The notes under the pieces are model-generated. The model had not been told where the DNA came from. It saw only the letters and a list, made by a program, of their open reading frames with translations, and made no database searches. This document shows positions 4,824-40,175 of a stretch of DNA of 64,000 nucleotides, piece by piece. Source of the DNA: Squalus acanthias. Taxonomy: Eukaryota. The position numbers were made by a program, and so were the translations under genes. The stretch is taken from positions 116,004,001 through 116,068,000 of the forward strand of contig CM059431.1 of assembly GCA_030390025.1 (NCBI GenBank), in the 5' to 3' direction. Positions within the stretch are counted from its first letter, which is position 1. The number at the start of each line of letters is the position of its first letter.

Positions 4824-6255
4824 ATATAGAAACATAGAAACATAGAAGATAGGAGCAGGAGTAGGCCATTCGGCCCCTCAAGCCTGCTCCGCCATTCAAT
4901 GAGATCATGGCTGATCATCCAAATTCAGTACCCTGTCCCTGCCTTTTCCCCATATCCCTTGATCCCTTTAGTCTTAAGAAATATATCTAACTCCTTCTTG
5001 AATATATTTAATGAATTGGCCTCCACTGCCTTCTGTGGTAGAGAATGCCACAGGTTCACCACTCTCTGGGTGAAGAAATTCCTCCTCATTTCTGTCCTAA
5101 ATGGCTTACCCCTTATCCTTAGACCGTGACCCCTGGTTCTGGACTCCCCAACCATCGGGAACATCCTTCCTGCATCTAGTCTGTCTAGTCCTGTTAGAAT
5201 TTTATAAGTTTCAATGAGATCCCCTCTCATTCTTCTAAACTCCAGCGAGCATAAGCCCAATCGACCCAATCTCTCCTCATACGTCATTCCTGCCATCCCA
5301 GGTATCAGTCTGGTGAATCTTCGCTGCACTCCCTCCATGGCAAGAACATCCTTCCTCAGATAAGGCGACCAAAACTGCACACAATACTCAAGGTGTGGTC
5401 TCACCAAGGCCCTGTACAACTGCAGCAAGACATCCTTGTTCCTGTATTTGAACCCTCTCGCTACGAAGGCCAACATACCATTTGCCTTCTTAACCGCCTG
5501 CTGCACCTGCATGCTTACCTTCAGCGACTGGTGCACAAGGACACCCAGGTCTCGTTGCACTTCCCCTTCTCCCAATCTATTGCCATTCAGATAATAATCT
5601 GCCTTCCCGTTTTTGACACCAAAGTGGATAACCTCGCATTTATCCACATTATAATGCGTCTGCCATGATTCTGCCCAATCACCCAACCTGTCCAAATCAT
5701 ACTGGAGTTTTTCTGCATCCTCCTCACAGCACACACGCCCACCCAGCTTTGTGTCATCTGCAAACTTGGAGATATTACATCTATTTCCCTCGCCTAGATC
5801 ATTAATATATATTGTGAATAGCTGGGGTCCTAGCACCGATCCCTGCGGTACCCCACTAGTCACTGCCTGCCACTCGGAAAAAGACCCGTTTATTCCAACT
5901 CTTTGCCTTCTGTCTGCCAACCAGTTCTCTATCCAAGTCAATACCTTGCCCCCAATCCCATGTGCCTTAACTTTACACGCTAATCTCTTATGCGGGACCT
6001 TATCGAAAGCCTTCTGGAACTCCAAATACACCACATCCACTGGTTCTCCCTTATCTATTTTACCAGTTACATCTTCAAAAAATTCCAGTAGATTAGTCAA
6101 GCATGATTCACCTTTTGTAAATCCATGTTGACTTTGTCCGATCCTGTCACTGTTTTCAAAGTGCTCTGCTATTACATCTTTTATAATGGACTCTAGCATT
6201 TTCCCCACTACCAATGTCAGGCTTATCGGTCTATAATTCCCCGTTTTCTCCCTAC
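4824..6255 (-). mobile_element. 5'-truncated CR1 LINE
   Basis: Open RT frame (NYRPISLT, QHGF, GVPQGSVLGP, FADD) ending GEKAGTGY*, followed by a 3' UTR and (TTCTATGT)n tail at ~4825-4848. Confidence 0.95.
4925..6252 (-). CDS. CR1 ORF2 reverse transcriptase and C-terminal domain (uninterrupted, but lacks the endonuclease and start)
   Basis: ORF 4925..6499. Only the part from EKTGNYRP onward is CR1-derived. Confidence 0.85.
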
Positions 6256-6259
6256 TTCC

Positions 6260-8725
6260 AAAATTGAAGGCATCTGCTTTGTTGTCTCTGCCCCCTCTGA
6301 CTTCTCCCCATCCAAAGCTTCTGCTGCTCTCTGTTCCTGAGGTACTTCGCCCCTCACTCCACAGTCTCTCCTCCATCTCCCCATCATCAATAAATATATC
6401 TCTTCCATGAAGCCCACAACCTGTCCCATTGCCCCTTCCATTCCCTGCTCCCGACTGCCAAACTGCCCCTTCTATTGCCACGATCACTGCCACCATCAAC
6501 CCACTCCTTCCTCTGGCTTGGTCTTTTCATCTTTCAAAATCACTGGTGTCACACGCCCCTTCCTCAAAAAAAAAAAGCTTTTCCACCCCTCTATCTTCTT
6601 GCCCATCTACAACCTTCCCTTTCTTACCACAGTTAATGCGGGTCTTTGGCAAGATATTACTTTTGCCTGTGCCCCTGACCCTGGCCAATTTTCCACAGTT
6701 AGGACAATTTCATTAGGGCAGACACTAGGGCTATTTATAGTGCCACTGGATTGCCAGTCTCAGGTTAGGGCGGGGAGTGGAGGGAAATTGCTGGGACACC
6801 TTACTGCAGCATAGGTGGTGCCAGCTGAACAACTCAAAAATAGTTTTTGTTCTCTTGAATTTTAAACTTGCTGCTTTGACCAATGCACTGAATCGCTCTG
6901 CAATCGATTGCACTAGATGAAGCAATCATAGCAAAGCTGGACATCCTGAATGTTCCAGTGTTCCTTTTGCTCAATATTGCTAAGTCAAAATGATGAGGGA
7001 ATCCATTGTATGATGCATTCTTGTCATTTGTGTCTTACCATAATATGTCCCCTGTATTTGGACAGGCGTATCATCCACCCAACGTCACATCCGGCAGAGA
7101 ATTCTGGTAGTGGCATCAGGTGACAGGATGTCAGTCGAGTGCTTCGCTAACCTAATTTCTTCCCTCATCCTCCTGGATTATGCCCAAAATCAGGTTGAGT
7201 AGCAGAGGAAATTCTGGCTTCTCTTCTCTATGCTGCATCTCAGTGGCACTGCTCCCTCCTGGTTCCACTCGTATCTGTCACACTAGAGATTACAATCCTC
7301 AAGTGGTTTCTCTTTCCACATCCACACAGTCACCTCTCTGAATCCTAGAACTTCCTTGTTTTTCATCATTTACAGGCCATCCCATCATTTACAGACCCCA
7401 TGTTATCTGGAAGCATGGGCTCTGTTCTCTGATGATAGTTGGCTCTACCTAGTTAGCTTCTCCATTGACCCCATGCCTGTTGCGATTGTCTCCAACTGCC
7501 TATGAACATTAAAATCTGGATCAGCCAAAACTTTCCCAAATTAATGTTGGCAAAACTGAAGCCAGTATCTTCAGTCCCTGAAAACAACTACATGCCTTTA
7601 AATTCAGCCCAACTCCCCCTCCCCCATTGTCACTCAGGCTTATCTAAGAGGTATGGAACCTTGGATTATCGCTCGACCCCAGATTCAACTTCCTCTTCCA
7701 CATACGAACTGTCATCGAGATGGTTTTATTTCACCTTCACAACGTTGCTCACCTCCACCCCCACCTCTCCTCCCTCCACCACCAAACCCTCATCCATACT
7801 TCTATAACCTGGTGGCTGCACCTCTCTAATGCTCCTAAACCTGTGTCTTTCTCTATTTCCCTCCCATCTCCCTTCGTCTCCTCTCAAAACTCATATTATC
7901 CATGAGACCGATCCCCTGCTCCCTTAAACTCATTCTCACTAAAACTGTTGGCCGTCGAACTTCCCTGCTTGGCCCCATGCCAGCTTACATTGTAAGTGGT
8001 TCCCTTTCTTCAGGTACTGTACCCCTGCCCTAGCCTTCAACCTATGTCAACTTTCAGTTTCTCTCCAAGCTCCTCTTATTCATTAGACCTACCTTCTGCT
8101 TCCTTGGCCCCATTTCAACTAAGTGCTATCACCAACCTCCCTCCCTAGCCTCTACGCTAGCTGACATTGTAAGTGCTTCCCTCTCTTCAGGTACTGTCTC
8201 CCTTCCTTTCAAAAGTGCGGTTATCACCTGCTTCCTCAAAATAACGACCCTTGACCCCTTTGTTCTTGAGAACTACCGACCCATCTCCAAACTTCCTTTT
8301 TTCTCCAAAGTGAATGTGCTGTCACCTCCCAAATCTATGCCCATCTTTCCTGCAATTCTTTGTTTGAATCTCTTCAATCATGTCTCCACCTTTGTATATG
8401 ACCTCCTGTATGTCCCCAAATGCACTCTCCAGTCTTCCAGTTCCAGTTTGCGTCTCGTCCCTCACTCCCACAGCTCCACTGTCTCCAGCCTCTCCTTCAG
8501 CCAACTTGTCCCTGCTCTCTGAATCTCCCTCTTTTTGCATCTCAACATTGCAAGTTCCTCCCTGCCTTCAAAGGCCTCCTCAAAGCCCCCCCCCCCTTTC
8601 GACCTTGCTTTTGCCCCTGGTGGCCTACATCCTTCCCCCCCACTGCACAGTGTTCACTTACTTTGTAAAACACCCTGAGATGTTTCTTGGCTTGTAATCT
8701 GTGCTACAGAAAAGGAAGTTGTTTA
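6260..8725 (+). mobile_element. Decayed L2-clade LINE fragments (6260-6640, 7230-8725)
   Basis: Pyrimidine-rich sequence with NYRPISKLPFFSK-like coding remnant at ~8270 and a 3' end like those at ~20050 and ~63690. Confidence 0.55.
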
Positions 8726-10100: not shown

Positions 10101-11117
10101 TCACTTTTCATTCAAGGCCACCCCAGGTTATATCTGCCACATTAGGCAGACTGCAGTGCGTACAGGTATCAAACAAGTGACCAACACTTTGGAGGTGAAT
10201 TTCTGTGGGCCTTCTCCCACTCGCCTGCTGTAGTTTCGGTGGAACAGCTGCAGAAGCCCTGGAAAAATGGTACAAGGGAACAGGGTGGCTGCACTTACTC
10301 TGTTGGTGACTTCCCTCCCTGCTACTGGCACCAATGCTTTTACTAGACGGTGGCCATCAACCCCAAATAGGGCCATTTTCTTTGGTGTACCTCCTGTAGC
10401 ACCACCTCCAAGTCCACAGCATCAAAGGAACCATTGTTGCCCACATGTCTTTGCTGTGCCTTTCTGAACAATTAGAACATTTTTCTGTCACCACTACAAC
10501 TTCTTAATCATAGAGTCATAGAGGTTTACAGCACAGAAAGAGGCCCTTCGGCCCATCGTGTCCGCGCCGGCCATCAAGCCCTGTCTATTCTAATCCCATT
10601 TTTCAGCACTTGGTCCGTAGCCTTGTATGCTATGGCATTTCAAGTGCTCATCTAAATGCTTCTTGAATGTTGTGAGGGTTCCTGCCTCTACCACCCTTTC
10701 AGGCAGTGAGTTCCAGATTCCAACCACCCTCTGGGTGAAAAAGTTTTTCCTCAAATCTCCTCTAAAACTCCTGCTCCTTACCTTGAAACTATGCCCCCTG
10801 GTTATTGACCCCTCTACTAAGGGGAAAAGTTCCTTTCTATCTACCCTATCTATGCCCCTCATAATTTTGTACACCTCAATCAGATCCCCCCTCAGCCTTC
10901 TCTGCTCTAAGGAAAACAACCCCAGCCTGTCCAGTCTCTCTTCATAGCTGAAGCGCTCCAGCCCAGGTAACATCCTGGTGAATCTCCTCTGCACCCTCTC
11001 AAATGCAATCACATCCCTCCTATAGTGTGGCGACCAGAACTGCACACAGTATTCCAGCTGTGGCCTAACTAGCATTTTGTACAGCTCCATCATAACCTCC
11101 CTGCTCTTATATTCTAT

Positions 11118-11342
11118 AGTGGTCATGATGTGGAGATGCCGGTGTTGGACTGGGGTGGACAAAATTGAGAGGTCGCACAACACCAGGTTATAGTCCAACA
11201 GTTTTATTTGAAATCACAAGCTTTCGGAGCTATCGATTTGCTCCTTCCTCCACCTGAGGAAGGAGCAAATCGATAGCTCCGAAAGCTTGTGATTTCAAAT
11301 AAAACTGTTGGACTATAACCTGGTGTTGTGCGACCTCTCAAT
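11118..11342 (-). mobile_element. Penelope-like fold-back short element, family B, inserted in CR1 ORF2
   Basis: Perfect 87-bp inverted arms (11164-11250 / 11256-11342) plus a unique tail. TSD (T)CTTATATTCTAT at 11105-11117 and 11342-11354. Confidence 0.85.
11251..11292 (+). ncRNA. Minimal type I hammerhead ribozyme motif (family B)
   Basis: cac-CTGAGGA-a-GGAGC(aaatcgata)GCTCC-GAA-AGCT-T-gtg: core boxes, 5-bp helix II, palindromic helix III, helix I cac/gtg. Confidence 0.75.
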
Positions 11343-14300
11343 CTTATATTCTATGCCTTGGCTAACGAAGGCAAGTATCCCATATGCCTTTTTAACCACC
11401 TTATCTACCTGTCCTGCTGCCTTCAGGGATCTATGTACATATACACCAAGGTCCCTCTGATCCTCTGTCCTTCCTAGGGTCCTACCATTCATTGTGTATT
11501 CCCTTGCCTTGTTAGTCCTCCCAAAATGCATCACCTCACACTTTTCAGGGTTAAATTCCATTTGCCACTGTTCTGCCCATCTAACTATCCCGTCTATATC
11601 GCCCTGTAGCCTGAGGCTTCCCTCCTCGCTATTTACCACTCCACCAATTCTCGTGTCATCTGCGAACTTACTGATCATACCTCCTACATTCATATCTAAA
11701 TCATTAATGTACACTACAAACAGCAAAGGACCCAGCACCGATCCCTGCGGTACACCACTGGACACAGTTTTCCAGTCACAAAAACAACCTTCAACCATCA
11801 ACCTCTGCCTCCTGCCACTAAGCCAATTTTGGATCCAATGTGCCAAATTGCTCTGGATCCCATGGATTCTTACCTTCTTGACCAGTCTCCCATGTGGGAC
11901 TTTGTCAAAAGCCTTACTGAAGTCCATGCAGACTACATCAACTGCACTACCCTCATCCACACACCCAGTCACCCCCTCAAAAAATTCAATCAATTTGGTC
12001 AGACATGATCTCCCCCTGACAAAGCCATGCTGACTATCCCTGATGAATCCCTGCCTCTCCAAGTGGAGACTAATTCTGTCCCTCAGAACTTTTTCCAATA
12101 ATTTCCCTACCACTGATGTTAGGCTCACTGGCCTGTAATTCCCTGGTTTATCCCTACTACACTTCTTGAACAATGGTACTACGTTAGCTGTTCTCCAGTC
12201 CTCTGGCACCTCCCCTGTGGCCAGAGAGGTTCTGAAAATTTGTGTCAGAGCCCCTGCAATCTCCTCCCTTGCCTCACACAGCAGCCTGCAATACATCCCG
12301 TCTGGGCCTGGGGATTTATCCTTTTTAAGCCCGCTAAAACCGCTAGTACCTCCTCCCTCTCAATACTAATTTGTTCAAGTATATCATAATCCCCCTGCCT
12401 GATTTCTATGCCTACATCACCCTTCTCCATAGTGAACACAAATGCAAAATATTCATTTAAAACCTCACCTACATCTTTCGGCTCTACACACAGATTGCCA
12501 CTTTGGTCCCTAATGGGCCCTACTCTTTCCCTGATTATCCTCTTGCCCTTAATATACTTGTAAAACACCTTGGGATTTTCCTTTATTTTGCCCGCCAGTG
12601 TTTTTTCATGCCCCCTCTTCGCTCTCCTAATTTCTTTTTTAAGTACCCCCTGCACTTTCTATACTCCTCTAGGGCTTCCACTGTTTTTAGTCCTTTGTAT
12701 CTGCCAAAATCCTTCCTTTTTTTCCTAATCCATTCTTGTATATCCCTTGACATCCAGGGCTTCCTCGGCTTGTCGGTCCCACCCTTGACCTTTACGGGAA
12801 CATGTTGGAGTTGTACTCTCTCCATTTCCTTTCTGAAAGACTCCCATTGCTCTGATGTGGATTTTCCTACAAGTAGCTGATCCCAGTCCATTTTGGCCAG
12901 ATCCTGCCTTATCATATTAAAATTGGCCTTCCCCCAATTTAGAACCTTTATTTCCAGTCCATCTTTGTCCTTTTGCATGACTACCTTAAATCTCACTGAA
13001 TTATGGTCACTGTCACCAAAATGCTCTCCTACTGACACTTCTACCACTTGCCCGGCTACATTCCCTCGAATTAGGTCCAGTACCGCCCCCTCTCTTGTAG
13101 GACTTTCTGCATGCTGGCTCAAAAAGCTCTCCTGGATGCACTTTAAGAATTCCGCACCCTCTAAACCTTTCACACTCTGACTATCCCAGTTAATATTGGG
13201 GAAGTTGAAATCCCCTACTATTATTACCCTATTATTTCTACACTTCTCTGAGATTTGCCTACATATCTGTTCCTCTGTCTCCCCCTGACTGTTTGGGGGC
13301 CTATAGTACACTCCCAGCAAAGTGCTTGCCCCCTTTTTGTTTTTAAGTTCTACCCATATGGCCTCATTAGAGGAACGTGCTAAGATATCATCCCTCCTTA
13401 CAGCAGTAATTGACTCCTTGATTAATATTGCGACACCCCCTCCTCTTTTACACCCCACTCTGTCTCGCCTGAAGATTCTATACCCCGGAATATTGAGCTG
13501 CCAGTCCTGCCCCTCCCTCAACCATGTCTCTGTGATAGCAACAATATCATACTCCCATGTGTTCATCAACACCTTCAATTCATCTGCCTTACTCGCAAGA
13601 CTCCTTGCATTAAAATAAATGCCATCCAGCCTTGCCATACTCCCTTGTGCTGTTACATATTTGCTCTGCCTTCCAGGCTGACTTGTTTTTTCCTCTATAT
13701 TTGGCTGTGCATCACTCCCTACTATAGCTCCACTCCGTATCCCATCCCCCTGCCAAGTTAGTTTTAACCCCCCCAACAGTACTACCCGCAAGGATGTTGG
13801 TCCCGTTCCAGTTCAGGTGTAACTCGTCCGACTTGTACAGGTCCCACCTTCCCCAGAAGCAGACCCAGTGATCCAGGAAACTAAAGCCCTCCCTCCTTCA
13901 ACAACTCTTTAGCCACGCATTCATCTGCTCTCTCCTCCTATTCCTATACTCGCTAGCACGTGGCACCGGGAGTAATCCAGAGATTACAACCTTTGAGGTC
14001 CTGCTTTTTTATCTGCTACCTAGCTCCCTAAATTTTTGTTGCAGGACCTCATCCCTCTTTCTACCCATGTCGTTGGTACCAATGTGAACCACGACCTCTG
14101 ACTGTTTGCCCTCCCCCTTCAGAATGCCCTGCAGCCGTTCAGTGACATCCTTGACCCTGGCACCAGGGAGGCAACATACCAACCTGAGGTCACATCTGCG
14201 GCCACAGAAACGTCTATCTGTTCCCCTTACGATAGAATCCCCTGTCACTATTGCTTTCCCACTCTTTTTCCTCCCCTCCTGTGCAGCTGAGCCACTCATA

Positions 14301-14643
14301 GTGCCACGGACTTGGCTCTTGCTGCATTCCCCTGAGAAACCATCTCCCCCATCAGCATCCAAAATGGAAAATCTGTTGGAGAGGGAGATGGACCCAGGGG
14401 ACTCCTGCACTACCTTCCTAGTTCTTTTACTCTGTGTGTCTTTTATGGTGATCTACAAACATTTATGTGCTACTGCCTCACTGGATTTTTCAATCCCCAG
14501 CCAAGCATGATACAGGCCAAGCTCTCTAGCTAAGGCTTTCCTGTGCCAGTAGCCTTATACAAAATACCTGAGCATATCTGACACACAACTGATTCAGCCA
14601 TCCATCACCAGATCTGGCTCAACCACATGAAGCATTATCATCT

Positions 14644-14826
14644 ATGGAGAAAGCAACAGAGTTAACGTTTCAGGTCGATGATCTTTCATCAGAACAGATG
14701 AAAGGTCATCGACCTGAAACATTAACTCTGTTTCTTGCTCCACAGATGCTGCCTGACCAGCTGCGTATTTCCAGCATTTTCAATTTTTATTTTAGATTTC
14801 TAGCATCCGCAGTACTTTGCTTTTGT
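14644..14826 (+). mobile_element. Penelope-derived fold-back element, family A
   Basis: Inverted arm 14644-14695 followed by a forward copy of the terminal repeat seen at 54970-55073. Confidence 0.8.
14660..14695 (-). ncRNA. Minimal hammerhead ribozyme motif (family A), one helix II mismatch
   Basis: Reverse strand reads gtt-CTGATGA-a-AGATC(atc)GACCT-GAA-ACGT-T-aac. Confidence 0.6.
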
Positions 14827-16170: not shown

Positions 16171-19100
16171 ATAGAACATAGAAACATAGAAGATAGGAGC
16201 AGGAGTAGGCCATTCGGCCCCTCGAGCCTGCTCCGCCATTTAATGAGATCATGGCTGATCATCCAAATTTAGTACCCTGTCCCTGCTTTCTCCCCATATC
16301 CCTTGATCCCTTTAGCCTTAAGAAATATATCTAACTCCTTCTTGAATATATTTAATGAATTGGCCTCAACTGCCTTCTGTGCTAGAGAATTCCACAGGTT
16401 CACCACTCTCTGCGTGAAGAAATTCCTCCTCATCTCGGTCCTAAATGGCTTACCCCTTATCCTTAGACTGTGACCCCTGGTTCTGGACTCCCCCGCCATC
16501 TGGAACATCCTTCCTGCATCTAGTCTGTCTAGTCCTGTTAGAATGTTATAAGTTTCAATTAGATCCCCTCTCATTCTTCTAAACTGTTGCGAATACAAGC
16601 CCAATCGTCCCAATCTCGCTTCATACGTCATTCCTGCCATCCCAGGTATCAGTCTGGTGAATCTTCGCTGCACTCCCTCCATGGCAAGAACATCCTTCCT
16701 CAGATAAGGTGACCAAAACTGCACACAATACTCAAGGTGTGGTCTCACCAAGGCCCTGTACAACTGCAGCAAGACATCCTTGCTCCTGTACTCGAATCCT
16801 TTCGCTATGAAGGCCAACATACCATTTGTCTTCTTAACCGCCTGCTGCGCCTGCATGCTTCCCTTCAACGACTGGTGCACAAGGACTCCCAGGTCTCGTT
16901 GCACTTCCCCTTTTCCCAATCTATTGCGGTTCAGATAATAATCTGCCTTCCTGTTTTTGCCACCAAAGTGGATAACCTCGCATTTATCCACATTATACTG
17001 CATCTGCCATGCATCTGCCCAATCACCCAACTTGTCCAAATCATACTGGAGTTTCTCTGCATCCTCGTAACAACACACACGCTCACCCAGCTTTGTGTTG
17101 TCTGCAAACTTGGAGATATTACATCTAGTTCCCTCGTCTAGATCATTAATATATATTGTGAATAACTGGGGTCCTAGCACCGATCCCTGCGGTACCCCAC
17201 TAGTCACTGCCTGCCACTCGGAAAAGGACCCGTTTATTCCAACTCTTTGCTTCCTGTCTGCCAACCAGTTCTCTATCCAAGTCAGTACCTTACCCCCAAT
17301 CCCATGTGCTTTTACTTTGCACACTAATCTCTTATGCAGGACTTTATCGAAAGCCTTCTGAAAGTCCAAATACACCACATCCACTGGTTCTCCCTTATCT
17401 ATTCTACCAGTTACATCCTCAAAAAATTCCAGTCGATTAGTCAAGCATGATTTATCTTTTGTAAATCCATGTTGAGTTTGTCCGATCCTTTCACTGTTTT
17501 CCAAGTGCTCTGCTATTACATCTTTTATAATGGACTCTAGCATTTTCCCCACTACCGATGTCAGGCTTACCGGTCTATAATTCCCCATTTTCTATCTCCC
17601 ACCTTTTTTAAATACTGGGGTTACATTAGCTACCCTCCAATCCATGGGAACTGTTCCAGAGTCTATAGAATTTTGGAAGATGACCAGCAATGCATCTACT
17701 ATTTCTAGGGCCACTTCTTTAAGTACCCTAGGATATAGATTATCAGGCCCTGAGGATTTATCGGCCTTCAATCCTGTCAATTTCCCTAACACCATTTCCC
17801 TACAAATATTGATTTCATTCAGTTCTTCCCTCTCATTAGACCCTATGTTCCCCGACATCTCTGGAAGGTTATTTGTGTCCTCCTTTGTGAAGACAGAACC
17901 AAAGTATGTATTTAATTGGTCAGCCATTTCTTTGTTCCCCATTATAAATTCCCCTGATTCTGCCTGCAAGGGACCTACACTTGACTTCACAAATCTTTTT
18001 CTCTTCACATATCTTTAGAAGCTTTTACAGTCAGTTTTTATGTTCCCTGCAAGCTTACTCTCATACTCTATTTCCCCCCTCTTAATTAATCCCTTTGTCC
18101 TCCTTTGCTGAATCCTAAACTGCTCCCAATCCTCAGGTTTGCTGCTTTTTCTGGCCAATTTATAAGTCCTCTCCTTGGATCTTATGCTATCCCTAATTTC
18201 CCTTGTTAGCCATGGTTGAGTCACCTTTTTTGTTTTATTTTTATGCCAAACAGTGATGAACAAATTCTGTAGTTCATCCATGTGATCTTTAAATGTTTGC
18301 CATTGCCTATCCACCATCAACCCTTTAAGTAACGTTCCCCAATCCATCCTAGCCAATTCACGCCTCATACCATCATAGTTTCCTTTATTTAAATTCAGGA
18401 CCCTAGTCTCTGAGTCAACTACTTCACTCTCCATCTTAACGAAGAATTCTATCATATTATAATCGCTCCTCCCCAAGGGGCCTCGCACAACAAGATTGCT
18501 AATTAATCCTTTCTCATTACATAATACCCAATCTAAGATAACCTGATCTCTAGTTGGTTCCTCAACATATTGGTCCAGGAAACCATCCCGTATACACTCT
18601 AGGAATTCCTCCTCCACAGTATTGTTACTAATTTGGTTATCCCAATCTATATGTAGATTAAAGTCACCCACGATAACTGCTGTGCCCTTATTGCACACAT
18701 CTCTAATTTTCCATTTAATGCCATCCCCAACCTCAGCATTACTGTTTGGGGGTCTGTATACAACTCCCACTAACGTTTTCTGCCCCTTGGTATTTCTCAG
18801 CTCTACCCATACAGATTCCACATCATCAGAGCTAATATCCTTCCTTACTATTGTGTTAATCTCCTCTTTAACCAGCAATGCTACCCCACCTCCTTTTCCT
18901 TTGTAACAACAGAAAACGCTGGAAAAACTCAGCTGGCCTGCTGAGTTTTTCCAGCGTTTTCTGTTGTTATTTCGGATTTCCAGCATCTGCAGTATTTTGC
19001 TATCCTTTTCCTTTGTGCCTGTCTTTCCTGAATACTGAATACCCCTGGATGTTGAATTCCCAGCCTTGGTCACCTTGGAGCCATGTCTCCGTAATCCCAA

Positions 19101-20589: not shown

Positions 20590-21145
20590 CACTGAGAGAG
20601 TGCATGATCAAAGGTGCTGTCTTTGTAGTCACACCTTAAACTGACACTTCTGTCTGTTCAGGTGTATGTAAAAGATTCCATGACATCAGTCAAAGAAGAG
20701 CAGGAGAGTTCTCCCAATGTCCTGGCCAACAATTATCCATCAACCAACATCAACAGATAGATTATTGTGTTATAAAAGCAGAAAATGCTGGAAATACTCA
20801 GCAGGTCAGGCAGCATCTGTGGAGAGAGAAACAGAGTTAACGTTTCAGGTCAATCGACCTGAAACGTTAACTCTGTTTCTCTCTCCACAGATGCTGCCTG
20901 ACCTGCTGAGTATTTCCAGCATTTTCTGTTTTTATTTCAGATTTCCAGCATCCACAGTATTTTGCTTTTGTATTAGATTATTGTGTTATTTTTCTCATTG
21001 CTGTTTGTGGGACCTTGCTGCACATAAATTGGCTGTCATGTTTGCCTACATAACACCGATGACTACACTTCAAAATTAATTGATTGGCTGTATGTCACTT
21101 TGGGACATCCTGAGGTCATGAAATACTATATAAATGCAAATTCTT
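20590..21145 (+). mobile_element. DeuSINE (SacSINE1-like), interrupted at 20774-20973
   Basis: Deu-domain-like gtaaaagattccatg..gaagagcaggagagttctcc..gtcctggccaac and the same tail as 25198-25645. Confidence 0.75.
20774..20973 (+). mobile_element. Family A Penelope-derived fold-back element
   Basis: Near-perfect inverted arms of about 78 bp centred at ~20853. 16-bp TSD TAGATTATTGTGTTAT at 20758-20773 and 20974-20989. Confidence 0.88.
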
Positions 21146-22748: not shown

Positions 22749-23405
22749 GACAGGTAGATAAGGTGGTTAAAAAGGCATATGGGATACTTGCCTTCATTAG
22801 CCGAGGCATAGAATATAAGAGCAGGGAGGTTATGATGGAGCTGTACAAAACGCTAGTTAGGCCACAGCTGGAATACTCTGTGCAGTTCTGGTCACCACAC
22901 TATAGGAGGGATGTGATTGCATTGGAGAGGGTGCAGAGGAGATTCACCAGGATGTTACCTGGGCTGGAGCGCTTCAGCTATGAAGAGAGACTGGACAGGT
23001 TGGGGTTGTTTTCCTTAGAGCAGAGAAGGCTGAGGGGGGATCTGATTGAGGTGTACAAAATTATGAGGGGCATAGATAGGGTAGATAGAAAGGAACTTTT
23101 CCCCTTAGTAGAGGGGTCAATAACTAGGGGGCATAGTTTCAAGGTAAGGGGCAGGAGGTTTAGAGGGGATTTGAGGAAAAACTTTTTCACCCAGAGGCTG
23201 GTTGGAAACTGGAACTCACTGCCTGAAAGGATGGTAGAGGCAGGAACCCTCACAACATTCAAGAAGCATTTAGATAAGCACTTGAAATGCCATAGCATAC
23301 AAGGCTACGGACCAAGTGCTGGAAAATGGGATTAGAATAGACAGGGCTTGATGGCCGGCGCGGACACGATGGGCCGAAGGGCCTCTTTCTGTGCTGTATA
23401 ACTCA
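22749..23405 (+). mobile_element. 5'-truncated CR1 LINE (same subfamily as 10508-14430)
   Basis: ORF 22763..23335 ending GYGPSAGKWD*. 3' UTR almost identical to the reverse complement of 10510-10600. Tail resumes at 24047. Confidence 0.93.
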
Positions 23406-29490: not shown

Positions 29491-31981
29491 GGGGGAAAAT
29501 GTGTCCTCTTAGCACCTCCTGTTATCACCAGCAGATGGGGCTAACAGGGTGCTAGAGCATTATTGGTGGGGCGAGGCGAATCCAACGCCACACACCAAAT
29601 CCTGCCCTCCCGTAGCGCCACTGGTAACAGTTATCGCCGGGAACCTCAACGCCAGGTGGATCATGATGTCAGTGAGTGTGCAACACTCACTGACTGCCCG
29701 ATCTGTGAAATTGATTGTCACCACCTACCTTAGCGCCTGGAGTAAACAGCGACAGGGAGAGCTGGTGTGAAACAGTCGGAAGCTGGCTCCAGGGACGTTA
29801 TTTAAAAGGATCATCAGTAATGACGTGCAGCTGTCAAGTTAGTGGAGTTTCAGTGGTTTCTTGTCAGTTTCACATAGTTCATTCTTATATGAAGTTCACA
29901 TTTATTCTTTAAAAAAATCAAACTGCTACACTTGGTTACATTAATGTGGGCTGTGCTGGCAGTTGACCTTGCTCACCACGGAGAACTTCGACCCTAGCGC
30001 TGAGTTCAGCGAAGGGTCCGAAGCATGCCAGGTAAACTCAGCATGCAGCAGACTCACAGAGGCGCTGTCAGCACCTCTTAAAGGGACACACACATCTTTC
30101 AGGTAAGTTTGCATTTAAGCTTTTGGACTTTTTGCTTTTACTGAAGTAGTGGCTTGCTGCAATAGATGTTAAAAGTTTTTTAAGTGTGTAAGGAGTGCTG
30201 CTGGATGCTTGCAAGTCTACATATGGTAAAGGAAGGCCTCTGAGAAGACAGGAAATGCCACAAATACTCAGCAGGTCAGGCAACATCCGTGAAGAGAGAA
30301 ACAGAATTTAACCTCAGGAAAAGATGTTGCCTGACCTGCTGAGTATGTCTAGCATTTTATGCTGTCATTTCAGATTGATACCATCCGCACGCAGAGGGAA
30401 GAGGAAGACATAGAAGAGGAGGAAACAGAAGAGGAACAAGCCGAAGAGGATGAAGCAGAAGAGGAGGAAGCAGAAGGAAGGATACAGCCCAGACAGCCCC
30501 TTTCTGGCTGGGATATCCAGGATGGAATCATCCGCCTGCGGTCCCAGTGACCACAACCCCAATTCCCCTTTCAACATTAGCCCCACACCTAACCTTCCCT
30601 CTGTTCCTGACCATCACAATGTCCTCTTGGCCATGATGCTGAAATAAAAGCCACTGCAAAGCAAACTTTCCAATGTAACTTTATACATCCATCCAATATG
30701 ACATCAAGAAATCAACTCATCACTCTTATGCATTCTCTTAGTGACTGTCTTGTGTGTGCCTTTGCCTATCCTACTGATGTCATGCAGTGCCTCCCCAGTG
30801 ACTGCAGCATGGCTGGTGGAAGGCTGCTGACTTTCAGTGAGGGACACTACAAATGGCCTTGCTGGTTGACCTTGAGGAGCTGGTGGCTGGGATGTGTGAA
30901 ATTGAGTGATGGTGTTTCTTCTTCTTCTTCACTCTCCTCTCCCTCTTCTTGGCAAACCATTGGCTGGGCAGGCTCCATTTCTTGGGTGTGTCAAATGAGG
31001 AAGGCACAAAGTGGAGTTGTGGCGAGGGGAGGGCGGGAAAGCAAGAGGTGCATGCCAGAAGGAGGATAACATATGAGGATACCAGCATCTTGTATCCTTT
31101 CTGCCCCACTGCTGGCCAAGGGCTCAGCCATGCTCCTGCCAAGAATGGCCTGCACCATCTCCTCCAAAGGGGTGAGGTGAAGCAAGGAATGGGTGACATG
31201 CCTCATGATTGTTGGTAGGTGAGTTATTGCGGAGGGAGTCATGCATTGAGCAGTGTGTGAGGCTAGTGATTCAGTTAGTAGGAGACGGCTTTTGAAGATG
31301 CAGTCACTGACCTTGACCAGTGGTCTGAGGTCATGAAGCTTCTTTGGACACTGGAGCCAGATGTTGGGGGCGATACTGCTGTAGTGACGGCCTCAATGAT
31401 CTGGTCCCACATCGTTCTTTCTGGAGGACCTCTTGGCCCCTGTGGGTAGAGGACCTCTCTTTCAGTGTTGACCCCCTGCACAAAGCTGGAGTGCTGCGTG
31501 CGGGACCCTAGGTGCCAATTCCTTGTTTTGCTGAGCCATTTGTGTTAGTGCTGAAGTACTTTTCCCTTTTTTTGCGGTTCAGAAGGGAATTCAGCTTTAA
31601 GTGCTAAAGACTCCCATTTGGGACTTCTTTTTAATGAGGCAGTAGGGCTGAAAACTGCATTTCCTCACTTCATTTTACTTCTGAACACATTGCCCCTTTA
31701 ATTCATAGCCCTTTTAATTGCCCACAATTCCTTGTGAACTCCACATCCTCGCTCCCAGAGCCTGTTAGAAGCTGGAACACCACTTCAGGACGGGATCTTC
31801 GACTGCCACGCCTGCACTAACGCCACCAATAAAGCGTTACACAGTAAGTTAGCGTGCGGTTAACAATCTTTAGCCCCAGCATAAATTTTTCTAGGGTATA
31901 GCTGTGTCCATTTTCAGCGGCCGTTAACCCGAGTTGCTGGTGATACCGGCAACTCTTGTGGTGGCCATGAATTTCTAGGCC
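29491..31981. mobile_element. Decayed non-autonomous Harbinger derivative (ends approximate)
   Basis: Acidic transposase-like C-terminus 30385-30550 (+, EEED..QDGIIRLRSQ*) converging on a Myb exon-1 remnant 31300-31490 (-, REVLYPQG..WDQI). TIR-like ends at ~31876 and ~31981. Degenerate family A fold-back at ~30245-30372. Confidence 0.55.
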
Positions 31982-34892
31982 ATTGTGGTTTTTTTTTTTC
32001 ATTTTCTTTTAACACTCATTAGTCATAAAAATATTAGAATTGGGGAAAAAAGGCTGTTTGCCTGGGTTGGGCTGGGCGGAGTGGTTGGAGGCGAGAGGCC
32101 ATGGGATGAAATCTCCAGGAATACGTCGAAACAGAGTTGGCAACCCTGGCGCCGGGTGGCGTGTGTGATGCAGCTTGCTGAGAAGTGCCCAGTTCCTGGC
32201 TACCACCAGGTGCCTTGGACCAACTTCTCAAAGGAGGACAACTGTCTGACATTGGGAGGCTTTCTGCGAAAGAATGTCCGATCTCAGTCATTGTGAGCTG
32301 CCTTCCCTTGGAGCACACACAAGACATACACTTGTTTAAAACTGGAAAAGCACACAGACAGACAGCCCTGTGTACGTGTGCTCCAATGCAGCTTGCATAT
32401 CGGTTCCAGTCACAGTACTGATTCGCTGGACAGATTTTAACATTTATCACTTTGAAAGCTACTTTTGTGCCTTAATAGAAGTGTTCCTTACAGCTTCCCC
32501 ACAGTGGAAGAGTGGTGAAAAAGGTTATCTCTACATCTTGACTTCTAATTCCATGAGGGTTAGTTAGTCAGTTAGTTCGGCCTATGCGAACTGCAGCCCA
32601 AAAGTACAATAATGTATGCAACGATGGATACACTTTCTTTGGCTGTCCTCTTAATATCACAAAACAACTTCAGCATTTTTTACCAGGCCCAAAACTCCAT
32701 TCACACTTGCAGCTATCTCCATTTAAACAGCTTGAGTGTGGCCTTTTGCTTCAACAAAGACTATCTTCTTTTGCTGCAGAATCCTCAAGGCCACCTCAGT
32801 AAAAGGGAGAGTTTTCCTATATTCCTGTTTTTTTAGACATTTTTACTGGCACGCACCACCTCTGCACATTTTGCCTGCAGCTCCTCACTTTCCTTCCCCA
32901 GAAAGCTGAACAATCAGTGTTGGCATTTTCAGCACCCCAGGTGTTATCCTGACTGAGATGAGCTTGATGACCAAAGATAGATTCTGGGACTGGTTTGTAC
33001 AGCTCAATACCATATTCATTTCAAGGGATGGGCAGAGCATTTGCTGAATTGCACATCATACCAATGGCCGCCATCAAAATCATTGTTTATAAACTAATAT
33101 AATTCAGTTTAACTAACTTTGAATTTAAGTTGGTTCATTAAAAATGCCCGCACACACAAGGTGTAATTATTTTAGTCATTGAAAGCATGTATCACAGCCC
33201 TTCATCAAAATTAATGTGCTTTTCAGATTTTGATAATTGCATATTAAGGACATTTGCATTTAAATTAAGTAAGACATGTAATGTAATTAAAATGCTAAAT
33301 AATGTTTGATAGAACTTCTTTTCTTAAAGAGCTAGAACACGGGTGTTTCCACTCCTTTACTACAATGTAGTCACTTCACAAATATCCCTAGATTGGGTGA
33401 AGTTCCTCTCATAGGCCTTCAAAGCAAGCTGCGAATGTGGCTGACTTATAACACCTTATCATTTCACAGGAGTGCCTATAGGATTGGGCTGGGTTGGACA
33501 GAAAGCCATGGCAGGGCACCTGCTATCAACAGAGGAGTGAAGGAAGTGGGCACAGGGCTTTTAAAAAATATATGCATAGTTGTGGTGGAGAGTGTACCTG
33601 CAGTGTGTGAATGCTCATGAAAACATCCAAGTCAAGCTCAATCCATGGACACTTTCCACCTGTCCTCCTCAGGTCAATGTGGCTCAAACCATACATTTCA
33701 TACCTACTGATTTTGAATTTGTTACTGTTTGATGACTATGACATTCCGCCAGTCAGAAAATGTTATACAGAACTATGATGCCCAAAGTGTCACACAGGTA
33801 GTGTGAAATGATAAACAGTACCATTTTTATTACCTAATTAGCATATTTGCCTTGCTTTTGCTCCTGGTGATTCAGAGGTTATGCTGATTATTAGGAGGTG
33901 GGTTGTTGGAGAAAGTCCTGGCTTAACAACATTACAGATGGAAGAGACTCTGAATATATACTTATATGTAATTTTTATGATCAGTAAGGATTAAGGAGCT
34001 GTCTGAAATGAACACTCAAGTGGAATTCATACTGTCTCAGCATTTTGTGCAACTTGTTCAGACCTTTTGATTTTTAATATTATGGTGCAAGTTTTTGATT
34101 TTTTTAAATTAAATAATAATTTTCATTAATTTTAGTTGTCTCATTTATGTATTTTGGGAATTACAAAATAGCAAATGGTGTAATACTTGATCATAGCTAT
34201 AGTATTACCACCGTTGAGACTATTGCATTTCACTTCTTGATAGAACTGCAAGACATTAAAGGAAATCACAAGAGAACATTTTTTTTTGTCAGCCAGATGT
34301 CTGATCTGCACAGAAAATCTATAACCATGCTTAAGAGTTCCCAATCCAAAGTACATAGAGACCCACATAAGTAGAGATTCTGTTTGCCTGATATAAAATG
34401 CTCAGACTATTGCCAGAGGGACAAGCTGCACATACCTAAGCATGAAGAGCTTAGATTCAGACTGGCAACAGCCAAGGTTAGCAGATCTTCCCTCCTCCCC
34501 CCAAGTGCTTGCCGAGGTACTGCTGGAGTTTAGCCCACTCTAAAATCCCTGGCAACTTACCAAAGCATCTGTAGTAAGCCTCCCAGTGCATGTTCAGTGA
34601 GCACCATCTTATGTTTCAGAGCATCAGCTTGTAAGGCTATCTGGAGATAAACAAGGAGAATCCAGCCCCCAATGACAGATCTGCAACATCAATCAGGCTG
34701 ACTGCAATCCTTTTGAAGGTGATATTATGAAGCTCATTTTATCTACATGCTTTATATAGAATGTGACTCCATAGTGGAGATATATTTTCCATAAATACGC
34801 AGCAACCCAGCAGAACTCAGATGTTAAACTTTTTGCTGCTATATTTTTCAGTTTTACCATCACTTTCGTTTTCCACAGCTGGGAGAAGAGTA

Positions 34893-35095
34893 ATGTGAGA
34901 AGTCACACAACACCAGGTTATAGTCCAACAGTTTTATTTGAAATCACAAGCTTTCGGAGCGGCTGCTCCTTCGTCAGGTGAAGGAGCAGCGCTCCGAAAG
35001 CTTGTGATTTCAAATAAAACTGTTGGACTATAACCTGGTGTTGTGCGACTTCTCACATTTGTCCACCCCAGTCCAGCACCGGCATCTCCACATCA
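34893..35095 (+). mobile_element. Penelope-like fold-back short element, family B
   Basis: Inverted arms of about 80 bp plus the same tail as 11118-11163. 12-bp TSD GGGAGAAGAGTA at 34881-34892 and 35096-35107. Confidence 0.87.
34944..34981 (-). ncRNA. Minimal type I hammerhead ribozyme motif (family B)
   Basis: Reverse strand reads tcac-CTGACGA-a-GGAGC(agcc)GCTCC-GAA-AGCT-T-gtga. Confidence 0.78.
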
Positions 35096-35124
35096 GGGAG
35101 AAGAGTAGTTCACTATCATGGATT

Positions 35125-35200
35125 AAACACAGAAAATGCTGGAAATACTTAGCAGATCAGGCAGCATCTGTGGAGAGAGAAACAGAGTTAACATTTCAGA
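35125..35200 (-). mobile_element. Family A Penelope terminal-repeat fragment
   Basis: Matches 20775-20850. Confidence 0.7.
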
Positions 35201-37506
35201 TCGTGATGGAATAACAATGTCGTACAGGTATAGTAATTACACAGTTGCAAATTAGACTCACCAGTGCATTATTCTTAAGGTTATGGAATGTAGCAGGACA
35301 TTTCACAGCTCAAACACCTTGAAGTGGGACAACCCTTGCCTGGAAAGAAATGCGGTTTTTGGGCCTACAGACACTTACCAATATCCAGAATTAAATTCCA
35401 GTGTGTTACTAGGCTTCTAAAAGAAAGTCTAAAGAGTCAAGAATGCGCGGCACTGGCTATTTGCCTTTCAAGGTCACCTCATTCATTCTTTATGTAGTCG
35501 ACGCAGAGTCTAACCTCTCCAGCTGGATTTGGAACTATGATCACAGGAAACATGCACATGCTGAGGCCGGCTCAATAATATCTTCTGGTTGCATCGTGTT
35601 AATTTGTTTCTCTTTTTTTGCTGATGGCCTACATTAAGGGACAAAAGCAATGGAGCAGGCTGCCTGTCTCAATGTAATATCAATCAGTCCTGGTTCAATT
35701 TATATCCTGTACCCGCCCTATCAATTACAGGTTTACAGCAAAATGCACAGAGATTAATATACTTCAAGCAGGCTTAGCTTGATACAAAAATTAAATATTA
35801 TTTTTTAATGCAGCCTCAACTCTGGCTGTGTGCAGCGGTACTGCTGCCATTGCCACAATTGTGGTTAAAATGTAAATCCATACAACTAAGATTAAAAACA
35901 GACAAACTATCAATGGGGCTTAATTCCCCTTTCCCCTTTAGGTACATTGAAGGTCACCTCATTCGACCTTCAGCATCCCCAAGCTGGCTTGGGACATTTC
36001 AACATTTTGGACACCCCTACTTTAAATGTTACGATGTCTGATTAACCAATTATCACTTTTACAGATGCTCAGTTGTAATGGCATCATATTTTTATTCAGT
36101 ACTGACCCTTTATTTACAAAGCCAGGTTTTATAAATCGTGTCCCTTTTCAGAGTGATAGTGTGTTGTTTATGTATTCAGTCAGAAGAATAATGAATTAAC
36201 AAAAAAAGCGCAAGAGAAGGTGGGATGCTGTTATTAAAAGACGAAGTACTGGGGTGGAAACTGAAATTAATTTCTGAGAATATTGAACACAGCTTTTGTG
36301 TAAATGTGAATGGAACACATCAGAATAAAGAACTGAATGAGATTTCTATTTTCTCAGCAGTTTGTCCCATGGAACCATTGACATTTACACAACATGCATG
36401 TTGAGAAATGTAATTTCCGCTGACTTTTTGTATCTGTTAACCTTTAATTGTTCAGAAACCATGGGCCTGAAATTACAGTGGGATACAAGTTTTTATTTCA
36501 AATGTCTAATGTGCTAGTCTAAAATTCCGCTCTCTGCTATTTCAGTGGAGGCTTTTTCTTTTATTACTCCAAGTACTACTAAATTCCCGTCTGTCAGCTC
36601 AGCAGTGACGACGGGGTTGAATGAATTCACTCCACTGTTGTCGGTTTTGACCTAGCCTAGCCGCTTCAGTCATCTCTATCCCTTTCGGTGACAAGTCACT
36701 CTTGACATTGTCTATCCAGCGCTTCCTTGGTCTTCCTAGGCCTGAATGGCCTGCTCCTGCTCCTATTTCTTATGTTCTTATGTTCCTTGGTTTCTTGTTC
36801 CATGTACCTCTGTGTGCAGGGCCATGAAAGGTATCCCAGCTCTTTCCATTCTTGAAACTAGGGTTGCCAACTCTGGTTGGACATATTCCTGGTAATCACG
36901 TGGATTTCTGTGCTCCAACCGCCCCATCCCAGACTCCTGCCATCGGTTGCCCAACTAGCCCATCCTCGGGGCGCCCCGCATTCCCACGGCAATCAGAAAA
37001 TGAGCAGACTCTTTGGGGTGGATTTTAACATGGTGGAGCGCATGGGTTTGGGTGCGGGTGGGAGGGTTGAAACCGGGAAAAATGTCAGCGCATCGGGAAG
37101 CCGGCTCCAACCCGCCGACTTCTGCATTTAACTCGAGGCGTTAGGCTGCTTGCGCTCAACCTCCTCGGGAGAGGCGGGTTGCCAATTACCATATGTTAAT
37201 CACTCAATTAGATTGATATTAACACACATTTTTGATTTTAGCATCCGGTACACGGGTTTCCCGGGCTTCCTGAAACTCGCCAGTGAAAGCAAGCTGAGAA
37301 CACAACGGCAATTGATGGGGATGAAGCCCTGTCAGGGAAATATGCCAATAAATACTCAGTACTCACAGCTGCTTTCTTACCTGCTAGTGGGAAAGAGTTT
37401 GTTCACAGTACTTTTGCCGAGAGGTTACTTTCTACACTTTGGAGGTTACTTTCTACTTTTTCGAGTTTACATTCTGCACTTTGGAGGTTTGTTCTATCTC
37501 ATCAGG

Positions 37507-38398
37507 ATGGGTGCTGCTTATGCTGCCTTAGATTGGACCTCAAATAGGGCCAAGATGACCAGCAACAGCACCATCAACAGCACCTACAGCAGCCTGCTGC
37601 TCATGGACCTGTAGCTCCACAGGAGAGAGGGCAGCAGCAGAGAGGGGAATAGCAGAGAGAAGGGCAACAGAGAGGAGAGCAGCAGAGAGGTAAGCATCAG
37701 AGAGGGCAGCAGCAGAGAGGTGCAGCTCGCAGAAGGCAATACCCACAAAATAGGGTATACAGGCAGAGGCTGAGTTTCCTTCATATGTCTGAACAGCAGT
37801 GTCTCGGGAGGCTCAGGATATCACATCAGATGATGGCAGACATCTGCAGCCACCTAGAAGAAGACCCACTACCTGCTGGACCTGGTGGCCACGCATCACC
37901 AGTGTCTCAAAGTCACCACTGCCCTCAACTTTTTTGCCTCCGGGTCCTTCCAGGCCTCTGCCGCAGACATATCCAGGATCTCCCAATCAGTTGCCCACAG
38001 ATGCATAAGACAGGTGACTGATGGCTTGTTTGCCAGGGCCGGCAATTATGTCAACTTTGCCAGCAATGATGCCAGTCAGAATGAGCGGGCGCTCAGCTTT
38101 GCTGCTCACATTCCCACAGGTGTAGGGTGCCATCGACTGCACACACGTGGCAATCCGGGCACCCACAGAACAACCAGGAGTATTCTTCAACCACAAGGGC
38201 TTCCATTCCATCAATGTGCAGCTGGTGTGCAACCACAAAAAGATGATGATGCAGGTGTGCACAAGATTCCTGGGAAGCTGCCATGATTCTTTTGTCCTGT
38301 GGCAGTCCAAGCTCTCTGATCTGTTCGGACCTGGAAGCAGACTTAAGGAGTGGCTGCCAGGTGACAAGGGATACCCACTTCAAACTTGGCTCATGACA
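37507..38398 (+). pseudogene. Harbinger (HARBI1-like) DDE transposase, frameshifted and 3'-truncated
   Basis: [66 protein letters not shown]. Confidence 0.92.
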
Positions 38399-38401
38399 TA
38401 A

Positions 38402-40175
38402 GAAGTAAGATAAGAACATAAGAAATAGGAGCAGGAGTAGGCCATTCGGCCCTTCGATCCTGCTCTGCCATTCAATGAGATCATAGCTGATCTTCTGCCT
38501 CAACTCCATTCACCAGCCCTATCGCCATATCCCTTGATGCCCTTACTAGTCAGAAATCTATTGACTTCTGTTTTGAATATACCCAATGACTGAGCCTCCA
38601 CAGCCCTCTGGGGTAGAGAATTCCAAAGATTCACCACCCTCTGTGTGAAGAAATGTTTTCTCTTCTCAGTCCTGAATGACCTACCCTTTATCTTGAGGCT
38701 GTTGCCCTAGTTCTAGACTCCCCAGCTAAGGGAAACAATCTCCCAACATCCATCCTATCAAGCCCTGTAATAATTTTGTATGCTTCAATGAGATCCCCTC
38801 TCATTCTTCTGAATTCAAGAGAATACAGGCTTAGTTTACTCAATCTCTTCTCATACGACAGTCCCGCCATCCCAGGAATCAATCTCGTGAATCTTCGTTG
38901 CACTCCCTCTATGGCAAGTATATCCTTCCTTAGGTAAGGAGACCAAAATTGTACACAGTACTCCAGGTGTGGTCTCACCAAGGCCCTATATAATTGGAGT
39001 AAGACTTCTTTACTCCTGTACTCAAATCCTCTTGTAATGAAGGCCAGCATACCATTTGCCTTCCTAATGGCTTGCTGCACCTCCACATTCACTTTCAGTG
39101 ACTCATGTACAAGAACACCCAGGACCCTTTGAGCATCTGCATTCCCCAATCTTTCACCATTTAGGAAATACTCTGCCTTTCTGTTTTTCCTACCAAAGTG
39201 GATAACTTCACATTTATCCACATTATATTCCATCTGCCATGTTCTCGCCCACTCATTGAGCCTGTTGAGATCCCCTTGAAGCCTCTTCACATCCTCTTCG
39301 CAACTGACACTGCCACCTAGCTTTGTATCATCAGCAAATTTGGAAATGTTACATTTAGTCCCCTCATCCAAATCATTGATATAGATTGTGAATAGCTGGG
39401 GCCCAAACACCAATCCTTGCGGTACCCCACTAGTCACAGCCTGCCATCCTGAAAAAGATCCGTTTATCCCTACTCTTTGTTTTCTGTCTGTTAACTAATT
39501 CTCAATCCATGCTAGTATATTACCCCCAATTCCATGTGCCCTAATTTTGTTCACCAACCTCTTGTGTGGGACTTATCGAAGGCCTTCTGAAAATCCAGAT
39601 ACACCACATCTATTGGTTCCCCTTTGTCTACTCCACTAGTTACATCCTCAAAGAACTCCAATAGGTTTGTCAAACAGGATTTCCCTTTCATAAATCCATG
39701 TTGACTCTGCCCAATCTTACTATTAGTTTCTAAGTGCCTAGTTATTGCATCCTTTGTAATAGATTCCAGCATTTTCCCAAATACTGATGTGAGGCTAACA
39801 GGTCTGCAGTTCCCCGTTTTCTCTCTCCCTCCTTTCTTAAATAGCGGGGTTACATTTGCTATCCTCCAATCTGCAGGAACCGTTCCAGAATCTATAGAAT
39901 TCTGGAAGATGACAACTAATGCGTCCACTATTCCAATGGTCACCTCTTTCAAAACCCTAGGATGTAGGTCATCTGGTCCTTGGGATTTATCGACTTTTAG
40001 TCCCATTAATTTTGCTAGCACTGTTTTTTTACTAATAATTTCTTTAAGTTCCTTATTCTCGTCACACCCATGGTTTTCTTGCATTTCTGGGAGGTTTTTT
40101 GTGTCTTCCTCCGTGAAGACAGAAACAAAAGTATTTATTTAATTTCTCTGCCATTTTCTCATTCTCCATTATAAA
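38402..40175 (-). mobile_element. 5'-truncated CR1 LINE
   Basis: RT ORFs 38688..39437 and 39551..40084. (TTCTTATG)n tail at ~38405-38425. Confidence 0.93.

Follow-up and report, generated by a model that had tools for sequence, protein, structure and literature searches.

A hammerhead-bearing fold-back insertion in the Squalus acanthias genome is most likely the leftover end of a Penelope-like element

The 64,000-nt stretch of Squalus acanthias DNA analysed here (contig CM059431.1 of assembly GCA_030390025.1; called "the window" below, with positions counted from its first letter) contains two short non-coding hairpin insertions, copies 1 and 2 of what we call family B, each of which carries one complete hammerhead ribozyme motif. 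The family B hairpin insert is most likely the leftover end of a Penelope-like element (PLE), which would make it an insertion of a familiar type rather than a new class of element driven by a ribozyme. More specifically, it is quite probable that family B is the pseudo-long terminal repeat (pLTR) end of an endonuclease-bearing (EN+) PLE of cartilaginous fish, deposited as short non-coding insertions. PLE insertions are often 5'-truncated, with a truncated copy lying inverted beside them and one end extended by a tail of 30-40 bp (PMC8557442, PMC3846280 and PMC8969392; these and the papers below are cited from excerpts), and the features of a PLE end that are present in family B are a minimal type I hammerhead, a head-to-head truncated pLTR, a one-sided tail with two classes of 3' end, and a target site duplication (TSD) with an empty site. 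An earlier note on this DNA had proposed a PLE link and a discrete ribozyme-containing family resembling a short interspersed element (SINE) or a retrozyme; the PLE link was right and the copies do appear to be non-coding PLE products, but a discrete SINE- or retrozyme-like family is unsupported because the junctions vary, the ribozyme is locked in a hairpin, and there are neither RNA polymerase III (Pol III) boxes nor poly(A) nor tandem hammerhead units.

Copy 1 is 224 bp long with a 13-bp TSD or 225 bp long with a 12-bp TSD; T11342 is common to the repeat arm and the TSD. Its parts and its host are as follows:

10521 to 13812, minus strand: host CR1-type long interspersed element (LINE) open reading frame (ORF) 2, with domain matches to APE endonuclease and reverse transcriptase (RT); the insert is near its 3' end
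11105 to 11117: left TSD, 13 bp, present as a single copy in a CR1 paralogue
11118 to 11163, minus strand: tail, confined to one arm; its end, with consensus TGACTA, is where the 3' ends of the family cluster
11164 to 11250, minus strand: tail-bearing pLTR arm, sense on this strand, which begins at G5 of the hammerhead core and is without C3-U4 and the 5' strand of helix I
11251 to 11255: unpaired centre of the fold-back, between the inverted arms
11251 to 11342, plus strand: tail-less pLTR arm, which contains the whole ribozyme core and is paired over 11256-11342
11251 to 11291, plus strand: minimal type I hammerhead with a 3-bp helix I, a 5-bp helix II with a 9-nt loop, and a palindromic helix III
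11342 to 11354: right TSD, 13 bp, repeat of 11105-11117

The two arms form a perfect inverted repeat of 87 bp (11164-11250 and 11256-11342) around a loop of 5 nt. The CR1 paralogue holds the TSD target once, as an empty site, and its left flank is identical to the copy 1 locus at 581 of 597 bases; copy 1 is therefore an insertion into CR1 ORF2, in which a Pfam scan found both the RT and APE domains. The coordinates and this empty site agree with the earlier description of an insert in CR1 ORF2 that is flanked by a TSD of 12-13 bp and consists of a perfect 87-bp inverted repeat plus a unique tail. The tail ends in an ATG (11126-11124, minus strand) plus two further codons, and this ATG is a possible start of the parent ORF.

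Copy 2 (insert 34893-35095) lies in the opposite orientation to copy 1, to which it is 87% identical:

34881 to 34892: left TSD, 12 bp, repeat of 35096-35107
34893 to 34983, minus strand: tail-less arm with complete hammerhead (C3 at 34977, helix I of 4 bp)
34980 to 35059, plus strand: tail-bearing arm, which starts inside the core; four nucleotides at the junction (GAAG, 34980-34983) are common to both arms
35060 to 35095, plus strand: tail, 36 bp
35096 to 35107: right TSD, 12 bp, repeat of 34881-34892

Alignment agrees that this is an independent copy with its own 12-bp TSD, in which the helix II stem is the same as in copy 1 and the loop is different, as had been noticed before; BLAST found no third family B copy in the window. 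Read tail-ward, both copies have the order inverted tail-less arm with complete core, forward arm, tail and TSD, and the tail is 46 bp long in copy 1 and 36 bp in copy 2. Two points that the earlier note did not contain are that the complete hammerhead sits on the tail-less arm in both copies and that the tail-bearing arm of both is cut inside the CUGANGA box. The junctions of the two copies differ. The private changes of copy 1 (the 9-nt helix II loop and bases near the arm end) are present in both its arms and in neither arm of copy 2, and the arms of copy 2 differ from each other by one substitution and one base of length.

The copy 1 hammerhead core has C3-A9 at 11254-11260, followed by an extra A at 11261, helix II (11262-11266/11276-11280), GAAA (11281-11284), the palindromic GC of a two-base helix III, and U16.1-U17, with the predicted cut after 11288. 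The motif previously placed at 11251-11292 is thus complete and in one arm, although its last base is 11291 and not 11292, helix I being just 3 bp (11251-11253/11289-11291). A strict motif scan found two hammerheads in the window, both of them the family B copies, versus none in 100 shuffled windows. Rfam gave no hammerhead at E<=1, which is not surprising when the motif is minimal, and on the hairpins it gave weak microRNA (miRNA) and selenocysteine insertion sequence (SECIS) matches only, every one below the gathering score. Such hairpins are easily mislabelled as miniature inverted-repeat transposable elements (MITEs), SINEs or miRNA precursors, as the weak miRNA matches illustrate. Could the insert in fact be a MITE-like DNA-level palindrome, or an inverted duplication made by repair, with a chance hammerhead? 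It has the long perfect inverted repeat and short non-coding body of a MITE, but its repeats are internal arms and not terminal ends, its tail is one-sided, the 12-13 bp TSDs are different between sites, the strict motif is absent from the shuffled windows, and the helix II stem is preserved while the loop changes. This origin is already largely refuted, and we give it almost no weight.

The motif is like the PLE minimal hammerheads of PMC4209133 in its core, the extra base between 9 and 10.1, G10.1-C11.1, the short palindromic helix III and the short helix I, and paired motifs on opposite strands 100-700 bp apart are likewise described there; it differs in having a helix II of 5 bp and a helix I of 3-4 bp; the excerpts of that paper do not mention sharks, and the family B motif is known from sequence. 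In the same source, pLTR minimal hammerheads of such architecture are weakly active, dimers included, and truncated PLEs are given as the origin of most single motifs. In silico folding of the whole copy 1 insert gives -174.8 kcal/mol, a value equalled by none of 200 shuffles. The pairing probability of helices I and II is 0.0000 in both whole elements, and forcing the hammerhead fold costs 59.3 and 41.7 kcal/mol in the whole elements versus 2.4 and 0.8 kcal/mol in the arm alone; this pairing and this opening cost predict that the complete hammerhead is sequestered and cannot fold in the element hairpin. In both copies a transcript of either strand meets the complement of the complete ribozyme before it meets the ribozyme. 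Cofolding two minimal motifs produced helix II exchange instead of a clean dimer helix III. The arms join head to head about 35-40 nt upstream of the predicted cut, and the copies run through the predicted cut site and reach about 37-45 nt beyond it on the upstream side, so the template RNA was uncut. The hammerhead would have been inherited from the parent pLTR, copied uncut and, as modelled, left inactive in the inserted hairpin.

The same observations bear on a non-LTR retrozyme origin, in which tandem hammerhead units self-cleave to monomers, circularise and re-insert. Like family B, metazoan non-LTR retrozymes are non-coding, are 150-450 bp long, have a type I hammerhead and originate from PLE pLTRs (PMC7229834; bioRxiv 2026.07.22.740005), and they are present in one sampled chondrichthyan (bioRxiv 2026.07.22.740005). 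The palindromic helix III of family B is of the dimer type, and among the listed variants H17 changes only from U to C, which preserves the cleavable triplet. As to purifying selection on the core, variation at 2% or more in either of two sets of public contigs (X1 and X6, below) is seen at 1 of 28 motif places (H17, U to C) and at 8 of 53 places downstream, a difference that is not significant (Fisher p = 0.15). The definition of a retrozyme, however, needs tandem direct units (PMC7229834), whereas family B has head-to-head single units with one intact core per insert, locked in a perfect hairpin in which it is predicted to be sequestered; its copies pass the predicted cut, and the listed ends do not map there. 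Neither window insert contains tandem direct complete units or cut-defined ends, and we regard this origin as very unlikely.

SINEs with tRNA, 5S or 7SL heads are likewise short, dispersed, TSD-flanked and non-coding, but family B, unlike them, lacks a Pol III head and boxes, does not end in poly(A) or a simple repeat, and has no single fixed unit. A scan with A and B box patterns written down from general knowledge gave no match on either strand of either copy, ARAGORN found no tRNA, and Rfam found no SINE head.

Does the window itself offer a control? A second hammerhead-bearing end, family A, has eight copies in the window, starting at many points:

54580 to 55074, plus strand: family A copy in which a GIY-YIG endonuclease C-terminus (54580-54792) is joined to a hammerhead pLTR (C3 at 54973)
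14636-14808, 18904-19001, 20774-20975, 30240-30392, 35124-35207, 58935-59065 and 60829-60906: seven further family A ends, of varied truncation

In the first of these the last 70 endonuclease codons run into a pLTR with a hammerhead architecture like that of family B. A search for relatives of the endonuclease end gave seven matches, including five named proteins of skates and a stingray; three of the five relatives scanned reach a weak GIY-YIG match that is below the cut-off (E 0.0013-0.13), and a second search gave RT plus GIY-YIG proteins of 576 and 889 amino acids, with 35% identity over 62 amino acids. Judged by its sequence, family A is the end of a coding PLE, with the same build of end as family B. 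Four family A copies are fold-backs, all with the tail on a single arm, and TSD-like repeats of 12-17 bp with one mismatch flank three copies (at 18.9k, 20.8k and 58.9k). Thus the tail is on one arm only in all six fold-back PLE ends of the window (two B and four A). In 4 of the 6 the tail-less arm extends further 5', and the tail arm has 3' sequence that is absent from the other arm.

Described EN+ PLE units (Penelope/Poseidon and Neptune; PMC3846280, PMC8557442) have, like family B, head-to-head pLTRs, a one-sided tail, a TSD, a pLTR hammerhead and a tail that ends at a possible ORF start (the family B tail being about 36-46 bp); family B differs in that its insert is two pLTR arms only, with no ORF between them. 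The purified PLE protein of the anole, a predicted dimer, works on uncut RNA: it nicks each of the two target strands, extends both, and begins reverse transcription at two internal RNA sites, between which the tail lies (PMC11167929). That element, PAc (a Poseidon of the green anole), resembles family B in the two tail-bounding RT starts downstream of the hammerhead, the uncut template and the nicking of both strands. The PAc ORF begins at helix II, with RT starts 111-118 nt and more into the ORF (PMC11167929), whereas family B has a stop after the cut site, its first in-frame ATG at the tail end and its first 3' end about 72-77 nt from helix II.

How common are such inserts, and are their junctions alike? 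Contigs of 4 of 23 listed public runs were aligned to the tail arm of copy 2 (34955-35123); run X6 carries an organism label other than that of X1, and X21 and X22 are RNA by guess only. Contigs matching this arm numbered 9,980 among 51.4 million records in X1 (about 55% of the run was read) and 3,872 among 28.5 million in X6, where neither the counts nor the summed depth is a copy number. Of the X1 contigs, 7,507 of 9,980 are at least 95% alike. The contigs are fragments, none of the listed pieces covering the whole of 34955-35123, and the slope in depth toward the 5' side is not taken as proof of truncation, as contig fragmentation yields such slopes. On these alignments family B is a large, dispersed and mostly young family common to the two organism labels, with diagnostic differences between them. 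Searches with an exact 26-nt pattern gave no match in viral contigs and none in metagenome contigs. In both X1 and X6 loose ends cluster at 35055-35060 and at 35092-35095, with heterogeneous sequence beyond, which defines two 3' ends about 38 nt apart; the tail consensus continues as TGACTA, which completes an ATG. Upstream of the core the consensus is TCTTCACTTCAC, and the loose ends there have median lengths of 14-21 letters. Among the fold-back joints, 13 of the 15 listed rows exit the long arm at 34982-34983, and these 13 rejoin at 11 different places between 35019 and 35061 (one row on the opposite strand); joints are detectable only where the reference holds both sides, and so are not a fair sample. 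By this count, many family B junctions are private. Random-length truncation, which the earlier note had named as a sign against a discrete family, is seen in part: the end of the short arm varies, whereas there is rather little variation in the 3' ends or in how far 5' the long arm reaches.

The anatomy, the TSDs, the in silico sequestration, the dispersal of the family, the two 3' ends and the variable junctions are observed; for the way in which the inserts arise we propose the following. A PLE RT-GIY-YIG protein would nick both target strands about 12-13 nt apart, and reverse transcription would start at two positions within the RNA, separated by about 38 nt, giving one first-strand cDNA per nick, a tail-less one from the first site and a tail-bearing one from the second. 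The two cDNAs would then be joined centre to centre with little or no microhomology (the overlap in copy 2 is 4 nt), so that each fold-back would be formed anew and would mostly be a dead end. Each arm holds sequence absent from the other in 4 of the 6 fold-backs, and therefore neither arm was copied from the other. Self-priming of a single sense-templated cDNA as the sole route is ruled out by the extra 5' sequence of the tail-less arm in these four. Within the PLE explanation the two-cDNA route is the most economical account of arm polarity, and we lean slightly toward it. The published alternative has the inversion arise by self-priming on an antisense template to give a full hairpin, and the tail arise by subsequent endonuclease trimming (resolution) or from two RT starts (PMC3846280, PMC8557442); two of the six fold-backs are as compatible with antisense self-priming as with the two-cDNA route, and the polarity of family B favours two cDNAs.

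A different possibility is that family B is a discrete non-autonomous fold-back retroposon, SINE-like without a Pol III head, in which one or a few master hairpins give full-length transcripts that PLE proteins insert again in trans. Both window copies are of 203-225 bp with nearly equal ends and centre, contig depth in X1 continues across the junction region, pLTR sequences suffice for trans mobilisation (PMC3846280), and non-autonomous PLE derivatives exist (PMC8557442). Yet the two window junctions differ, the private changes of copy 1 are shared by its own arms and by neither arm of copy 2, at least 11 other restart points occur among the listed joints, the 87-bp duplex buries the first RT start region, and there is no A or B box, tRNA head or poly(A). 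We consider a master hairpin improbable as the explanation of the family. Several points nevertheless weigh against the origin we prefer, namely independent deposition of PLE ends. The arms of both copies are near-full, their centres fall no more than 3 nt apart within the core, and the long arm has a preferred stopping place, which together make a real size mode; re-copying from a master hairpin may account for some of the junction types. In two of the six fold-backs (family A at 18.9k and 20.8k) the tail arm is a few bases longer, and simple self-priming fits these as well. The contig data are fragmentary, the listed pieces never spanning the whole stretch. Finally, neither the window nor a search with the translated end yielded a coding partner of family B, and its placement among PLEs is based on architecture and the sister family.

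The search for that partner covered the following. Of the window frames of 95 or more amino acids, 92 of 117 were scanned against Pfam (there are 233 frames of 75 or more), with no match to a PLE RT or GIY-YIG domain, in line with the earlier note's statement that the window has no coding partner for family B. A search for the parent ORF with the translated arm and tail returned one candidate and nothing significant, which is a weak negative. A separate match, P0010 (the one match among 1.84 billion representatives), was rejected as an artefact of summed weak repeats, its best domain scoring 4.4 bits. The full-length relatives of the family A endonuclease, P0012 and P0013, were rejected as a link, their N-terminus not being the MTT of the family B tail end; a further relative, P0011, is without its N-terminus and so is uninformative for this comparison.

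A further reading combines three leads and is, as a whole, tentative and somewhat doubtful: an initiator A start about 7 nt upstream of the core, two nick-primed cDNAs that are joined, and hairpins that are A-to-I edited. The parent transcript would start at this A, and a dimeric PLE protein would prime two first-strand cDNAs near the RNA 5' end, one per nick and internal start site; these would run at most to the capped 5' end, in the manner of a strong-stop, and would sometimes add a C opposite the cap. With such a strong-stop two-cDNA process, no antisense template would be needed to explain the arm polarity, the size mode and the presence of a tail on one side only. In all eight listed long-arm joints with known bridging letters the first bridging letter is a templated T; the base opposite it is an A in TCACTT context, 7 nt upstream of C3 and one base beyond 34983. 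Three of these eight joints continue templated and five stop, and in 4 of the 5 stops the next letter is C (a bridging letter in three, the first letter of the other arm in one); these are small numbers. Copying a cap would leave an extra C, as is known from work on LINEs. The TCACTT context resembles the vertebrate initiator consensus, and this A is a possible capped transcription start. A TCACT initiator-like motif is described in a rotifer pLTR (PMC3846280).

The editing lead comes from the two RNA-guessed runs. Changes of T>C at 35015 are at 9.4 and 7.8% in these runs versus 0.13% in X1, T>C at 35031 at 5.4 and 5.4% versus 0.66%, and A>G at 35033 at 10.0 and 9.0% versus 0.21%, so that A>G or T>C at these three places is 8- to 64-fold higher than in the DNA run. 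None of five C>T rows is above 1.2-fold. The excess lies on the hairpin arm, including 35050, in contexts without a 5' G, and 16% of the aligned RNA-guessed contigs are less than 90% alike versus 2.3% in DNA. Two rows do not fit editing: an A>C change shows a 3.4-fold increase, and at 35019 A>G is less frequent in the RNA-guessed runs. The excess may be ADAR editing; the animals differ, and the expressed copies may be a biased subset. Editing of palindromic repeats is described in frog, and Penelope is heavily edited in lizard (PMC5625713).

As found, family B is one more PLE-end family, of little weight in itself and useful for repeat annotation. If the two-cDNA model is true, thousands of young shark junctions could be used to test from genomes how PLE inverted ends and tails form, and the same junctions could test whether the hammerhead ever acts on the template. 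If the edited-hairpin reading is true, these inserts would be a large built-in source of perfect double-stranded RNA and probably a main ADAR substrate in these animals, and the hairpins would give a concrete reason for the heavy Penelope editing in lizard (PMC5625713). Our literature search found no description of a shark palindromic non-autonomous Penelope, Penelope twin priming, a shark Neptune with GIY-YIG, or shark Penelope hairpins with ADAR; Repbase, Dfam and the supplements of the 2026 preprint were outside its scope and may list family B.

CR1-type LINEs of several subfamilies take up much of the window, in at least eight copies, some of them 95-97% alike:

4831-6526, 10521-13812, 16175-19100, 22751-23404, 38513-41975, 43207-46811, 49133-51971 and 59465-60173: CR1-type LINE copies

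Upstream of the ORF2 that hosts copy 1, 14012-14452 (minus strand) has a weak GDSL lipase/esterase match (E 0.007), which we take to be what is expected of an esterase-bearing CR1 ORF1. A 21-bp tandem array at 49203-49517, before another CR1 ORF2, is open in several frames, and its Pfam ice-binding match is probably repeat-driven. On the plus strand, 46886-47212 and 47794-48777 contain a Myb/SANT-like domain (PF13873, E 7e-10) and a 328-amino-acid frame, with related pieces as diverged inverted matches at 634-1564 and 52550-53182; these pieces are probably remnants of a Harbinger-type transposon. Imperfect local hairpins at 55759-55931, 42405-42496 and 57040-57082 match neither family A nor family B. 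At 37609-37743 there is a purine-rich array with a degenerate 15-bp unit, and at 53871-54024 a C-rich array of low complexity.

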